A stretch of 54,032 nt of DNA, from NCBI GenBank assembly GCA_027339965.1, contig DAHWNL010000079.1, forward strand, positions 1-54,032, given 5' to 3'. The DNA comes from Granulicella sp. Lineage in GTDB: Bacteria; Acidobacteriota; Terriglobia; Terriglobales; Acidobacteriaceae. Positions within the stretch are counted from its first letter, which is position 1. The number at the start of each line of letters is the position of its first letter. Positions 27,001-30,000 of the stretch are shown here, piece after piece. A program made the position numbers.

Positions 27001-30000
27001 TTTCGGATTCCCCAGAGTCTCGGTGTAAATGGCCCGCGTTTTGCCGTTGATGGCCGCACGCACCCCGTTAAAATCATCCGCATCCACAAATCGAACCGTG
27101 ATGCCCTGTCTGGGCAACGTGTAGTGAAACAGGTTGTAGGTGCCTCCGTACAAGGACGTCGTAGAGATGATCTCTTCGCCCGCACTGGCCAGCGTCTGGA
27201 TGGCCAGCGTCTCCGCGGCCTGCCCGGAGGCGGTCGCCAACCCGGCTGCGCCGCCTTCCAGGGCGGCGATGCGCTTCTCCAGCACATCGGTGGTGGGGTT
27301 CATCAGGCGCGTATAAATGTTGCCGAACTCCTGCAGGCCGAAGAGCCGGGCCGCATGGTCAGAGTCGTTGAAGAGATAGGACGTTGTCTGATAGATCGGC
27401 ACCGCGCGAGCTTGTGTCGAGCTGTCAGAGGCCTGTCCGGCGTGGATAGCAAGCGTTGCAAGCTGCTGCTTCGTCGTGGAAACTTCCTCGGGCATCGTTG
27501 ACTCCTTTGTCCAACCAGTGATTGATTCTCTGCATCGCCTGCAACAAAAAAGGCTCACCATCCTCAAGGATCGTGAGCCGCTCAGAACTTGATCATCTTT
27601 GCTTTAAAGCATCAGACCGTTCCGGCACGCACCCACGAGCGTCGACACATGGACATATCCACGTGCATTCGAGCCACATTGGTGCAGCAGAAGACCATGC
27701 CCTTGAGTATGCTACAGGCCATCCGGCAAATGCAACACGGTAGAAGCGCGCGGGGGTGGGCCACAGAGAACAGGGGAAAGCTCTAAGCCCCACGCCCAGC
27801 CAGAGACGCCGGCAAAGATCACTCAACCCAGCGCCGGACGAGGCCATCCACCCAGACCGTCCCGCCTACCCAGCAGCCGATGGGCCCGGCTACGCAGCAG
27901 CCGATACGCCTGATTGATCGCTCCCGTCTGCCGGCTCGCCCGCCTCGGTTCCTCTTCGTACTCCAAGCCGCTCCCGCCACTTCTCCCGCCAGGAGGCCGC
28001 TTGCCGGTATCACACCCGGCCGCGCTGACCTTAAGCCGCTTGCAATGCCGGTTCACCTCCAGCCTTTGGCAGGCTCGCTCTCCGGGCAGCGGAAGCAACC
28101 TCTGTTGCCGGCCTGCAGGAGTGGCGGTTGGGGAAGAAAGGCTCCGGCGCTGGGTGGCGGAGGTTGCAACGCGAGATTGAGGGTTCCTTCGCAGAGCGCG
28201 CAGGCTCTTACGTTCCCATGACGCATAAGAAATCATGCAAGGCCCAAAACGGGAAGCTCTGCCCTTGGCTCTTTGCCGTTGTTCCGCAATCGGACGCAAT
28301 CCCCTGATCCGACTCGATCCGGCGTGGAGCTTGGGCGATCCCAATCTTCAAGAGCAGACCGCAGATCATCGCTCCCAACCGCTTCGAAGCAGATTGCAAC
28401 GATGGCTCAGTCCCTTCCAGACAACTTGTGGATCAAGCAATTCAGCCAGCTCAGGGATGCCGGCTCGGCAGCCACGCAGCGGGCGCTCCATGCGTCCGGA
28501 TCATGGGATTGCCCCTCGATGGCGGATGCCGCTACCGGCACAACGCATCAGAACTTCAACGGCGCGGATTGCTTTGGCTACAGGACCGTGCGCAGCGCAA
28601 GAAGTATACTATCCTCGGTGAACGACAAACGCTTAGGCGGATCGACCGCGATCGCGCCGAAAGATCAACTCCCAGGACGACTGCTGAAATGAGGACTCTC
28701 GATTGGGCCCGATAAACAATCCCTGGCTTGAAATTCTGGATCTCGAGGCTTTGCCGGCGGTCGTGAAATCTGCATCAGCAGCGCTTCTTCACCTGCATCG
28801 TTCGCCGAGGAGGCGGATCCGCCGGGCCGCGCTTGTGCTGGCCGCAGCAGCCTTGATGTCCAACTCCCTGCCGGCCCAGACAGGCCCCATGGCGCCGTCC
28901 CATACCGAAGTGGCGGAAAACTCCTCCAGTTGGATCGGCTCTTCTTATATCCCCGTGGATAGCTGGATTTACACCGCTGCCTTGCGTTTGTACTACCTGG
29001 GTTATCTTCCCACAGCCTATCTTGGCATGCGACCCTGGACGCGCGCTTCACTAGCCTACATGCTGGAACTCTCTCAGGACGCGCTGCAATCGGTCTACGC
29101 GCCCCCGGAAGCCGTCGAAATCAATGCGCGCCTGCGCAAGGAACTCGCTCCGGAGTTGAATTACGACTCAAAGGCATACCTGCGCACAGCCACCGTTTAT
29201 ACCCGGCTGCGTCAGATTGACGGCAATATTCTCAATGACAGCTTTCACTTAGGCCAGACAATTGTGAATGACTACGGAAGACCCGATGAGCCGGGCTTCA
29301 ACAACTTGACCGGCTTCAGCGCTGAAGCGCGCGATGGACGCTTCAGCCTGTTTGTCCGCAGCGAGTTCCAGGAGGCTCCCTCGGCCATTGGTTACTCTGC
29401 GTCCGTCGCAGCGCAACTGGCGGCGATCGACGAGACGCCGGATGTCCCGCAGACCACCATCCCTGCGGGAATCATCCCGTCACAGACCATCTCCCGGGTG
29501 GTCGAGGCCACTGCGTCTGCCCATATCTGGGGACATGAGGTCTCCTTTGGCAAAAGCGACCAGTGGCTTGGTCCCGCCAAAGGCGCGAGCATGGCCTGGT
29601 CCAACAACGCCGAGAACATCTACAGCTTCCAGATCAATCGCGTGGAGCCACTCTACATTCCTGGTCTCTCGCGCATCTTCGGCCTCTTCCGTTACGACTT
29701 CATGATCGGCAATCTCCAGGGGCACCAGTTTCCCCTTGATCCATGGATTCACATGGAGAAGGTCAGCATGAAGGTAACGCCAGACATTGAAATTGGCTTC
29801 ATGCGAGATGTAATCTGGGGCGGCAAAGGGCAGAAGTGCGCCGTGCCGCCAACCCCGGATGCGATTGTGCCTACCTGCAACGTCCCTATCAACCTGCGGA
29901 CGTTTCTGCGCAGCTTTTTCAGCGTCACAGCGCCTCCGCCAAGCATCAAGTTCTCACCCCTCAATCCGGGAGCTCGCTTCAGCACCTTCGACTTCACCTG

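Follow-up and report, generated by a model that had tools for sequence, protein, structure and literature searches.

Within the window (the whole 54,032 nt stretch of Granulicella sp. DNA analysed here), the metY and metX genes are located on the minus strand, the last 4 nt of metY being shared with metX. The metY product matched Pfam Cys_Met_Meta_PP (3.4e-140) and NCBIfam TIGR01326 (667 bits, cut-off 495), and the metX product matched NCBIfam NF001209 (361 bits, cut-off 331). The operon is preceded by a putative promoter, a short open reading frame (ORF) and an intrinsic terminator, and the features discussed below are as follows:

27730..27735, minus strand: -35-like hexamer TTGCAT, recognised from sequence, with TTGCA invariant in the 10-sequence alignment
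27706..27711, minus strand: -10-like hexamer CATACT, after an 18-nt spacer from the -35 hexamer and exactly 7 nt from the leader ATG
27612..27698, minus strand: leader ORF of 28 codons plus TGA, ATG at 27698, without a Shine-Dalgarno sequence and probably leaderless
27645..27668, minus strand: putative regulatory codon run, codons 11–18, ATG CAC GTG GAT ATG TCC ATG TGT (M H V D M S M C)
27670..27686, minus strand: region 1, 5′ strand of the leader hairpin (transcript nt 13–29), from minimum-energy folds, partner of region 2 when no ribosome is present
27629..27638, minus strand: region 2, TCGTGGGTGC (nt 61–70), partner of either region 1 or the terminator 5′ arm (antiterminator)
27580..27626, minus strand: middle hairpin (nt 73–119), present in minimum-energy and masked folds, holding the leader stop codon and enclosed by the antiterminator
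27546..27579, minus strand: intrinsic terminator, from folding and RNAalifold, with hairpin GGCTCACGATCC..GGATGGTGAGCC (27579–27552) followed by T6 (27551–27546)
26173..27507, minus strand: Shine-Dalgarno sequence AAGGAG (27507–27502) and metY (ATG 27495), O-acetylhomoserine sulfhydrylase family
25064..26176, minus strand: metX, homoserine O-acetyltransferase

Translation of 27698–27612 gives MVFCCTNVARMHVDMSMCRRSWVRAGTV followed by the stop, with Cys codons at positions 4–5, Met codons at 11, 15 and 17, a GTG at codon 13 and a Cys codon at 18, and the terminator ends 47 nt before metY. The promoter, the 28-codon ORF with its Met and Cys codons 11–18 and the terminator had been described on the minus strand in the genome-wide survey's note, and all were found where it had placed them. 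Beyond the leader, the next Pfam-supported gene is Wzi-like, with an ORF start at 28703 on the plus strand. A simple consensus scan of 27300–28500 called neither promoter nor terminator, which we ascribe to the thresholds of the scan rather than to absence, and for the terminator to its interrupted stem.

The leader region lacks stop codons in all three frames, hence an open frame is no evidence for translation at this position, and we rejected it as an indication of coding. The Met density of the window was likewise discarded as stand-alone evidence after a genome-wide control, since at least 3 in-frame ATG codons within 8 stop-free codons occur at 1148 loci in 7.6 million positions of the own genome when read in six frames, so that the run of the window, with 3 Met and 1 Cys in 8 codons, is on its own only weakly unusual. 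It is comparison with relatives that gives the case its weight. Transcription is predicted to start at the leader ATG and the ORF is probably translated, which would rely on a leaderless start as the ORF lacks a Shine-Dalgarno sequence.

At the sequence level the element is present in 11 of the 101 genomes of the genus, this genome included, and these are exactly the genomes with this metY ortholog. BLAST matched 11/101 genomes, one of which (L013) was a spurious match not adjoining metY, and its removal returned the 10/101 counted previously; a covariance model (R1) gave 11 strong hits in the 101 genomes by adding genome G418, while its other matches in the genus were either noise or hits to the terminator in reverse-strand orientation. 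Other members of the genus carry metY paralogs (55% identity) with a gene directly upstream and no leader. DNA-level searches yielded no distant copies outside the close clade: BLAST matched 2/401 genomes of a family sample, and the exact core pattern, searched in 185,579 species genomes, was present at 12 loci, of which 10 belong to the clade and two, in Nitrospira and Litoreibacter records, were dismissed as chance matches without any leader. Within the own genome, R1 gave the metY copy only, and none of 46 loci with Met/Cys-dense windows was convincing as a second leader; the best-looking of these (C82:54079) showed neither promoter nor terminator, and the closest ORF on its strand with 120 codons or more is 1.2 kb away.

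In all 11 sequences of the clade the ORF has the same start and stop codons and is 28 codons long, and its ATG follows the -10 hexamer at a distance of 7 nt. Among the 10 aligned sequences, Met is found at codon 11 in 10/10, at codon 13 in 7/10, at codon 15 in 9/10 and at codon 17 in 10/10, with Cys at codon 18 in 9/10, which reproduces the counts given earlier, and the codons between these conserved Met and Cys codons vary. The suggestion that the ORF holds sensing codons for both amino acids stands for the conserved Cys at 18, but not for the Cys codons 4–5, which are not conserved in the clade and are positioned in pairing region 1.

The 156-nt RNA folds with a predicted energy of -65.3 kcal/mol (z -4.16), with 0/200 shuffled sequences being as stable, and RNAalifold on the 10 aligned sequences returned the same 39 pairs, 4 with compensatory changes, and the same 12-pair terminator as were previously reported. 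The terminator pair 124:147 is UA, UG or CG among the clade sequences, and the terminator hairpins of the 11 sequences have energies between -12.8 and -19.2 kcal/mol. The 1:2 structure was paired in 79.2% of cells (slid-partner control ≤56.7%) and the antiterminator helix in 96.7% (slid controls ≤46.7%). The core of region 2 (GTGGGTGC) is invariant in the clade alignment and the middle hairpin is highly conserved at the nucleotide level. Covariation within the close clade is thin, as one antiterminator pair is changed on both sides and 6/9 pairs never vary.

The competing pairings were modelled by folding the nascent RNA up to the terminator loop with the ribosomal A-site set at a given codon, and with the RNA assumed to be free from 14 nt past the first A-site base. 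With the A-site at codons 13–17, 7–9 of the first 9 nt of the terminator arm paired with nt 61–70 in 11/11 sequences, and with the ribosome at the stop codon no such pairing was formed in any of the 11. When the truncated RNA was folded without a ribosome, the expected 1:2 pairing was obtained in 7/11 sequences, and the 2:3 pairing was already present in 4/11. The full-length minimum-energy fold contained the terminator in 11/11 sequences, as the survey's note had stated, and antitermination is therefore a kinetic proposal, with the support from masked folds and pairing energies being that of thermodynamic models.

Orthologs of metY (71–83% identity) were found in 120/400 other genomes of the family, and in 48/142 genera when that of the window is counted. 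We surveyed the upstream DNA of 60 of these loci for runs of at least 5 Met plus Cys codons, at least 1 of them Met, in a stop-free window of 8 codons. Such runs were found on the sense strand of 43/59 loci, on the antisense strand of 3/59, and in 8/3000 random 300-nt windows of the own genome. Homologous ORFs of 20–37 codons precede metY across the family, with runs in other genera such as MAMCMCM, MCMCMC and MCMCMCMC; the run of the clade is mostly Met, and most other genera alternate Met and Cys. A TTGAC(A) sequence is located at the matching relative -35 position in most other genera, and the strict pattern of a NATACT-type box, 7 nt and the ATG of a short ORF was present at 26/60 loci, compared to 7 sites when both strands of the entire own genome are counted; 25 of these 26 loci have at least 4 Met plus Cys codons within 8 codons. 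Downstream of ATGs defined by the promoter, 114/114 Met/Cys motif matches were in frame, and the distance from ATG to run took 8 values between 27 and 51 nt, with 24/24 distances being multiples of 3. A family-wide device had already been claimed in the survey's note, and this applies to codons and architecture (43/59 loci), but not to DNA similarity, which does not reach beyond 11 species genomes. Some family loci lack the device, two of them with a SAM-II-like match and two without any leader. On inspection, the 13/60 loci that failed the first run criterion consist of 9 Cys-rich variants, 2 with a SAM-II-like element and 2 with an adjacent upstream gene.

One alternative is that the Met/Cys-rich ORF encodes a functional small peptide, for instance a metal-binding or redox peptide, placed before or co-transcribed with metY and having no role as sensor. 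Soft metals can be bound by Met and Cys residues at spaced positions, and the Met/Cys-rich motifs are indeed conserved at the peptide level across genera. Conversely, the peptide varies freely outside the run, including its N-terminal 10 codons, and the number of repeats differs between close relatives (MCMCMC versus MCMCMCMCMC in one genus). Moreover, the ORF is always followed by a terminator with an arm that pairs with its 3′ part, and the downstream genes are sulfur amino-acid genes, and we consider a functional peptide very improbable, the least probable of the explanations weighed here.

A hairpin with a U-tract is located 28–135 nt upstream of metY in most of the 60 loci, with homologous terminators of the GGCCCACGGUC type across the family, and 34/60 loci passed all automated criteria for run plus terminator. 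The segment 15–43 nt before the leader stop pairs with the 5′ arm of its own terminator at a mean of -18.4 kcal/mol, and with the arms of other loci at a mean of -14.8; none of 10,000 permutations reached the observed value, although the significance of the family tests is overstated because related genomes were treated as independent. Region 2 and the terminator arm also change together between loci, with GACCGUGGG accompanied by CCCACGGUC, GGACCCG by CGGGUCC, CUCGUCGCGGG by CCUGCGGCGAG, and GGCGGGG by CCCGCC. These results, together with the masked folds (11/11 sequences), support the mutually exclusive 1:2, 2:3 and 3:4 pairings proposed in the survey's note.

In a second explanation, Met and Cys are again sensed through translation of the leader, yet the main effect is on metY translation or mRNA stability, either in the manner of mycobacterial polycysteine leaderless short ORFs or via Rho, with a minor role for the hairpin and U-tract. 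Several family loci gave no strong terminator in the automated scan, and the metL leader of Streptomyces lividans is described in the available text as having no typical terminator (PMC8079986), both of which would fit such a mechanism. The terminator of the window, in contrast, is canonical (12 pairs, GC-rich, T6), which leaves it outside the mycobacterial-type translational attenuators, where a ribosome-binding site is unmasked and no terminator is present. The AAGGAG of metY is about 40 nt beyond the terminator and outside the predicted structures, in a fold that does not span the Shine-Dalgarno sequence, and terminator-type hairpins with U-tracts are the rule in the family, with 5′ arms that co-vary with region 2. 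Control mainly at the level of translation or mRNA stability is hence unlikely.

Searches for known RNA families were negative, as had been reported before: Rfam models gave nothing better than E = 5 over 27300–28500 (reported up to E 10) and no match at the gathering threshold in 20 loci, 7 of which are leader-bearing, and the best SAM-I score in the whole own genome was 22.4 bits, with a cut-off of 44.4. The SAM-II-like match at two family loci was below threshold. SAM-I riboswitches (RF00162) were present before metY at 6/6 loci scanned in another family of the phylum, where they presumably cause premature termination, a job equal to that of the leader; the position is the same, but SAM is sensed directly by the aptamer, and there is none in the window.

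The use of riboswitches at orthologous loci of other lineages raises the question whether the RNA of the window is itself a ligand-binding riboswitch (with SAM as an example of a ligand) or a protein-controlled terminator, with the short ORF being incidental. The ligand could be bound by hairpin A, the middle hairpin and the invariant GUGGGUGC...GUCUGAUGCG block, or an RNA-binding protein could recognise the spaced AUG or UGCAUG repeats. The unusual stability of the fold (z -4.16), the nucleotide-level conservation of the middle hairpin and of the ORF's 3′ half, which extends to third codon positions, and the three open frames, which make the ORF not special as an open frame, are all compatible with an element acting as RNA, as is the partial self-complementarity of the Met/Cys hexamer repeats, which form a hairpin. 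An RNA-only element, however, has no need of an ATG exactly 7 nt past the -10 box, and would not hold 114/114 motifs in frame or 24/24 distances at multiples of 3. The lack of Rfam matches, to E 10 at the window and at the gathering threshold in 20 loci, also argues against it, and outside the run and the pairing regions the loci have diverged beyond detection by BLAST or covariance models, unlike an aptamer core. We therefore regard this explanation as improbable, slightly more so than control of translation or mRNA stability.

We conclude that the element is most likely a ribosome-mediated (leader-peptide) transcription attenuator of metY-metX, which would sense the supply of Met and Cys. 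Sequence analysis shows the parts and how well they are conserved, the maintained reading frame and the covarying competing pairings, whereas the position of the transcription start, translation of the leader, the extent of RNA covered by the ribosome and a reaction to Met or Cys supply are inferred. In the proposed mechanism, transcription would start at, or 1 nt before, the A of the ATG at 27698, and the mRNA would therefore be leaderless, with a 70S ribosome initiating on its 5′ end. When Met-tRNA and Cys-tRNA are plentiful, the ribosome would reach the UGA, cover region 2 and open the middle hairpin, allowing the 3:4 terminator to form and RNA polymerase to halt at the U-tract, 47 nt before metY; if no ribosome is loaded, the 1:2 and 3:4 pairings would form and transcription would stop as well. 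When charged elongator tRNA-Met is scarce, or charged tRNA-Cys at codon 18, the ribosome would stall within codons 11–18 and hide the 5′ half of the leader hairpin, with its leading edge ending immediately before region 2. Left unpaired, region 2 (UCGUGGGUGC) could then form a helix with the 5′ arm of the terminator (GGCUCACGA) that spans the middle hairpin, which may function as a spacer or pause element, and this antiterminator would block the terminator and allow transcription of metY-metX. Severe Met starvation could prevent the required stall, since initiation itself needs Met-tRNAfMet, which poses the mechanistic question of how a leaderless mRNA that starts with Met-tRNAfMet would report a shortage of elongator Met-tRNA.

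In classical attenuators, the position of the ribosome is read out through mutually exclusive 1:2, 2:3 and 3:4 pairings. The element resembles the trpL, hisL, thrL, leuL, pheL and ilv leaders in combining a short ORF enriched in codons for the product, an intrinsic terminator and exclusive pairings, but differs in that its codons are for both Met and Cys and are interspersed with each other instead of forming a plain run, its mRNA is apparently leaderless and lacks a Shine-Dalgarno sequence, a hairpin of about 47 nt lies inside the antiterminator, no Rfam leader matches it, and it is found in the phylum Acidobacteriota. The novelty of a Met leader was overstated in the survey's note, as such leaders are in print for Campylobacter jejuni (PMC3847290) and S. 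lividans (PMC8079986); the likeness to both concerns architecture only, as taken from the text of these papers. In C. jejuni, Porcelli et al. (2013) proposed ribosome-stalling attenuation for MetL, located before metY (cj1727c)-metA (PMC3847290), and its translation start was detected by initiation-site profiling, according to the part of the report available (bioRxiv 10.1101/2022.11.09.515450). MetL likewise is a small ORF containing Met codons and a single Cys codon, on a short RNA ending just past the stop and directly before a kindred operon, but has 20 codons, a ribosome-binding site and only 2 internal Met and 1 Cys, and antiterminator analysis is absent from the available text of that paper (PMC3847290). 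The S. lividans metL leader (Droste et al. 2021, PMC8079986), with a transcription start mapped by RNA-seq, is leaderless, has 29 codons ending in Cys-Met-Cys-Arg-Arg-Met-Cys and is linked to methionine-related genes. It differs in preceding the metNIQ importer and, as far as the available text goes, in that its authors found no typical Rho-independent terminator and annotated it in a single genome without comparative analysis (PMC8079986).

Two systems with Cys codons are also related in design. Mycobacterial polycysteine leaderless short ORFs, the 'Cys ribulon', similarly use stalling at codons for a rare amino acid to de-repress downstream sulfur amino-acid genes (Canestrari et al., bioRxiv 10.1101/834739), but as described in the part of the work available they have Cys codons only and unmask the following gene's ribosome-binding site without an intrinsic terminator, and they are from Actinobacteria and were tested experimentally, whereas the present element is known from its sequence. 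In Rhodobacterales, uORFC-8-2 before cysS is a predicted ribosome-mediated attenuator with conserved Cys codons in the first stem and a terminator with U run (Brewer et al. 2021, PMC8632094); the available description gives it two tandem Cys codons and no Met, and the gene under its control, in Alphaproteobacteria, is that of a tRNA synthetase.

Regulation in Acidobacteriota has hardly been studied, and for attenuators predicted in Acidobacteria a function is assigned in almost no case, according to the available part of an earlier study, which also describes the exchange of leader-peptide systems with riboswitches and T-boxes (PMC2965389). The element provides a concrete, testable circuit for control of sulfur amino-acid synthesis in a dominant group of soil bacteria. 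It also illustrates how sensors of three kinds replace one another upstream of orthologous genes in a single phylum, namely the Met/Cys leader peptide, the SAM-I riboswitch and the SAM-II-like element. To the very few proposed Met-codon leaders (Campylobacter MetL and Streptomyces metL) it adds a well-populated one covering dozens of genera, with clear terminator, antiterminator and frame conservation. For annotation, such short ORFs should be called as leader peptides, and the 5′ regions that contain them are not empty.

The device may extend beyond metY, and we lean, with considerable reserve, towards a 'sulfur amino-acid ribulon' of leaderless Met/Cys leaders with terminator/antiterminator switches in Acidobacteriaceae and at least 4 other families of the phylum, which would jointly read the charging of tRNA-Met and tRNA-Cys. 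As part of this same tentatively favoured proposal, its targets would be metY-metX and, in various genera, hom, PAPS-reductase, siroheme-type methylase and ATP-grasp genes, sister lineages would read SAM by riboswitch instead, and the hexamer repeat (AUGUGY)n would be both sensor and pairing strand, growing and shrinking in whole codons. Like runs of Met/Cys codons followed by a terminator were found in other family members before the homoserine dehydrogenase (hom) gene, a PAPS-reductase-domain (cysH-like) gene, a tetrapyrrole methylase (cysG-like) gene and an ATP-grasp gene, and the hom, cysH-like and cysG-like leaders are comparable to the sharing of one device by several loci reported in the available part of the Cys ribulon study (bioRxiv 10.1101/834739).

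The genome-wide survey's note had proposed a Met/Cys leader-peptide attenuator at 27496–27735 of the window, and all of the parts that it claimed were found at the stated place, upstream of metY on the minus strand:

27735–27730, minus strand: −35-like sequence TTGCAT, with an 18-nt spacer to the −10
27711–27706, minus strand: −10-like sequence CATACT, 7 nt before the leader ATG
27698 (ATG) to 27614–27612 (TGA), minus strand: leader ORF of 28 codons, MVFCCTNVARMHVDMSMCRRSWVRAGTV
27579–27552, minus strand: terminator hairpin, followed by T6 at 27551–27546, 47 nt ahead of metY
27495, minus strand: ATG of metY, preceded by AAGGAG (TIGR01326, 667 bits, cut-off 495)
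4-nt overlap with the end of metY, minus strand: metX (NF001209, 361 bits, cut-off 331)

Since metX overlaps the end of metY, the two genes look like an operon. The 156-nt RNA folds at −65.3 kcal/mol (z −4.16; 0/200 shuffles fold as well) into three structures: the terminator, a middle hairpin and, at the 5′ end, a long hairpin that contains the Met codons. The best Rfam match in the leader region was no better than E = 5, and a simple consensus scan called neither the promoter nor the terminator, the −35 sharing 3/6 consensus positions and the terminator stem being interrupted. The gap upstream of the promoter (27736–28700) is GC-rich and unalignable among relatives, and its long ORFs, such as 27823–28344 on the minus strand (173 aa) and 28235–28621 on the plus strand, gave no Pfam match.

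Within the genus, BLAST gave matches in 11/101 genomes, one of them a 22-nt chance similarity away from metY, while a covariance model based on 10 sequences and run on the same 101 genomes returned 11 strong matches, gaining one genome (G418) over BLAST. The leader ORF has no indel in the 10 aligned sequences of this clade, with Met at codons 11 (10/10), 13 (7/10), 15 (9/10) and 17 (10/10) and Cys at codon 18 (9/10), and RNAalifold predicts 39 pairs, four of them compensatory; the survey's counts for BLAST, codon positions and pairs were thus reproduced. The Cys codons 4–5 of the window's leader are unconserved, relatives having R, Y, S or H at these positions. Taken singly, the window's own Met/Cys-dense run (codons 11–18) is weak evidence, because at least three in-frame ATG per eight stop-free codons occur at 1148 loci among the 7.6 million six-frame positions of its own genome and the leader region is stop-free in all three frames, so that the case must rest on comparison with relatives.

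The alignable element is limited to 11 species genomes, which are exactly the 11/101 genus genomes with a metY ortholog of >85% identity, and a search of 185,579 species genomes with the exact core pattern returned the loci of this clade, two chance matches and nothing else. In the rest of the genus the only metY is a 55%-identity paralog, located directly behind another gene and lacking a leader. Orthologs of metY with 71–83% identity are present in 120/400 other genomes of the family Acidobacteriaceae and in 48/142 of its genera, including the window's own, a patchy distribution that suggests loss or transfer.

We surveyed the 520 nt upstream of metY in the 60 best-scoring of these 120 orthologs, and most of the 60 loci contain a short ORF with interleaved Met and Cys codons (MAMCMCM, MAMCMHMC, MCMCMCMCMC and CMCCTCMC, for example), ending 80–190 nt before metY. 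Runs of at least five Met plus Cys codons, at least one of them Met, within a stop-free eight-codon window ≤300 nt from metY were found on the sense strand of 43/59 family upstream regions, versus 3/59 for the antisense of the same DNA and 8/3000 for random 300-nt windows of the window's own genome. For metY upstream regions taken from the phylum's other families the frequency was 6/40; all six runs are genuine, of MCMCMC type, and come from four families. Among the 13/60 family loci that failed an initial criterion for the run, separate from the count above, nine carry Cys-heavy variants (CCCMC, CCCM, CCM, CCRM), several behind the same promoter type as the other leaders, two have an adjacent upstream gene and two have a different, SAM-II-like element. 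The notion of a family-wide leader therefore holds for the device, that is, its codons and architecture (43/59 loci), but not for alignable sequence, which is confined to the 11 genomes. In one genus (L091, L092 and L098) the number of Met-Cys repeats varies among close relatives (MCMCMC versus MCMCMCMCMC), as if an AUGUGY hexamer repeat had expanded by whole codons.

The leader ORF is probably translated, and the evolutionary evidence for this is strong. A strict pattern of TTG[AC][CA]N, a 16–18 nt spacer, NA[TC][AC]NT, exactly 7 nt and an ATG opening a 15–50-codon ORF was found at 26/60 family loci, of which 25 have at least four Met plus Cys per eight codons; the entire genome of the window has seven such sites on both strands together. 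Downstream of the promoter-defined ATGs, ATGNNNATG, ATGTGY and TGYATG together occur 114 times, always in the frame of the ATG, and the distance from ATG to run, which takes eight values from 27 to 51 nt, is a multiple of three in 24/24 cases. Both of these rules, of frame and of spacing, speak for translation, as an RNA-only element has no reason for frame-locked motifs or three-fold spacing, and together with the lack of a conserved core they make it improbable that the element is a riboswitch or protein-bound RNA in which the ORF is incidental. That the product is a functional Met/Cys peptide is less probable still, since the sequence outside the run varies freely and the repeat number changes. 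The fixed 7-nt gap between −10 and ATG places transcription initiation likely at or beside the A of the leader ATG, in which case the mRNA would be leaderless. At 27601–27617 (minus strand) the window clade keeps the motif AUGCG(C/A)UA(G/A) as GAUGCGCUAG; in several other genera (L067, L069, L073, L078 and L086) this motif holds the leader stop codon (…R M R stop), whereas the clade reads it in another frame and its ORF ends two codons earlier, at UGA; apparently the stop codon has shifted position and the RNA motif has been retained.

Most of the 60 family loci have a terminator-type hairpin with a U-tract 28–135 nt before metY, and many of these are visibly homologous to that of the window (GGCCCACGGUC...GAUCGUGGGCC type). 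Automated screening retained 34/60 loci on every criterion, and at these the terminator 5′ arm (region 3) has its best partner 15–43 nt before the leader stop codon, just past the Met/Cys run. This partner, region 2, which together with region 1 forms the leader hairpin, changes along with the terminator arm between lineages, as in GACCGUGGG with CCCACGGUC, GGACCCG with CGGGUCC, CUCGUCGCGGG with CCUGCGGCGAG, and GGCGGGG with CCCGCC. Mean pairing energy was −14.8 kcal/mol with the arms of other loci versus −18.4 kcal/mol with a locus's own arm, the latter value being reached in 0/10,000 permutations, the true significance being lower as related genomes are non-independent.

For the window clade, the nascent RNA was folded only up to the terminator loop, with the ribosome position masked. 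With the A-site at codon 13, 15 or 17, 7–9 of the first nine nucleotides of the terminator arm pair with nt 61–70 (UCGUGGGUGC) in 11/11 sequences, spanning the middle hairpin, and no such pairing occurs in any of the 11 once the ribosome is placed at the stop codon. Folds without a ribosome have region 2 paired with region 1 in 7/11 sequences and already with region 3 in 4/11. In the 10-sequence alignment the antiterminator helix (2:3) is 96.7% paired, with one compensatory pair, versus ≤46.7% when slid, and the 1:2 structure is 79.2% paired versus ≤56.7%. The terminator (3:4) is part of every full-length minimum-energy fold, so the decision of the switch would be kinetic, as in other attenuators. 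A translated sensor whose main effect is on translation or stability, the mycobacterial mode, is unlikely given this canonical, conserved and co-varying terminator.

The comparative evidence supports the attenuator interpretation of the survey's note, and the leader upstream of metY-metX probably functions by classical ribosome-mediated attenuation. With ample Met-tRNA and Cys-tRNA the ribosome would reach the UGA, allowing the terminator to form and switching the operon off, and without a ribosome the 1:2 and 3:4 pairings would likewise keep it off. When charged tRNA is scarce, stalling in codons 11–18 would free region 2 for the 2:3 pairing and permit read-through into metY-metX. The run consists mainly of Met with one conserved Cys in the window clade, while most genera interleave both, which fits the annotation of the enzyme family of metY as O-acetylhomoserine/O-acetylserine sulfhydrylase.

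Leaders with Met or Cys codons have been published, and the kind is therefore already known. One is the 20-codon MetL that Porcelli et al. 2013 (PMC3847290) proposed in Campylobacter jejuni ahead of metY (cj1727c)-metA, likewise a Met-type leader before metY, which is reported on a short RNA ending just past the MetL stop codon and for which initiation profiling detected a translation start (bioRxiv 10.1101/2022.11.09.515450). In Streptomyces lividans, Droste et al. 2021 (PMC8079986) annotated a 29-codon metL that is leaderless and ends in C-M-C-R-R-M-C; it precedes metNIQ rather than metY-metX and, unlike the window's leader, is described there as having no typical terminator. The Cys-codon leaders of mycobacteria, predicted earlier (PMC1262725), were tested and reported to be leaderless and to act on translation (10.1101/834739), in contrast to the canonical co-varying terminator found here, and Cys-codon leaders were predicted before cysS in Rhodobacteria (PMC8632094). 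The novelty claimed by the survey thus does not extend to a Met-type leader before metY as such, but our literature search found none described in Acidobacteriota, nor, for Met-type leaders, an interleaved Met/Cys repeat, a fixed leaderless design, a co-varying antiterminator or a spread over dozens of genera. The leader before metY would extend a known kind to a new phylum, in which it appears well populated.

The exact M-C-M-C-M pattern was found in 49/401 family genomes, with 62 matches versus about nine for the reversed pattern. Away from metY, short ORFs with a strong terminator behind them also contain runs of this type (L179, L180, L181, L186, L187, L189–L192, L195 and L196), and by naive gene calls they precede homoserine dehydrogenase, a PAPS-reductase-domain gene, a tetrapyrrole methylase and RimK-like ATP-grasp genes, as well as a DUF3034 gene upstream of metY. 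Such leaders before several genes suggest a small sulfur amino-acid regulon. In the window's own genome the metY leader was the sole copy found by the covariance model and a scan for Met/Cys-dense windows. The only SAM-I-like match of that genome lies outside the window (C80:40151–40230) and scores 22.4 bits, far under the cut-off of 44.4. In another family of the phylum, a SAM-I riboswitch (RF00162) precedes the metY ortholog in 6/6 loci scanned (L137 and L143–L147; 65–81 bits, gathering score 44.4), in the same place as the Met/Cys leader in the window's family. Two loci of the latter (L112:355–426 and L114:339–409) share a conserved motif followed by a terminator before metY, with no short ORF; this motif scores 29.2 and 22.2 bits with SAM_alpha/SAM-II-type models (RF00521), below the threshold of 36, and is possibly a divergent SAM-II-like riboswitch.
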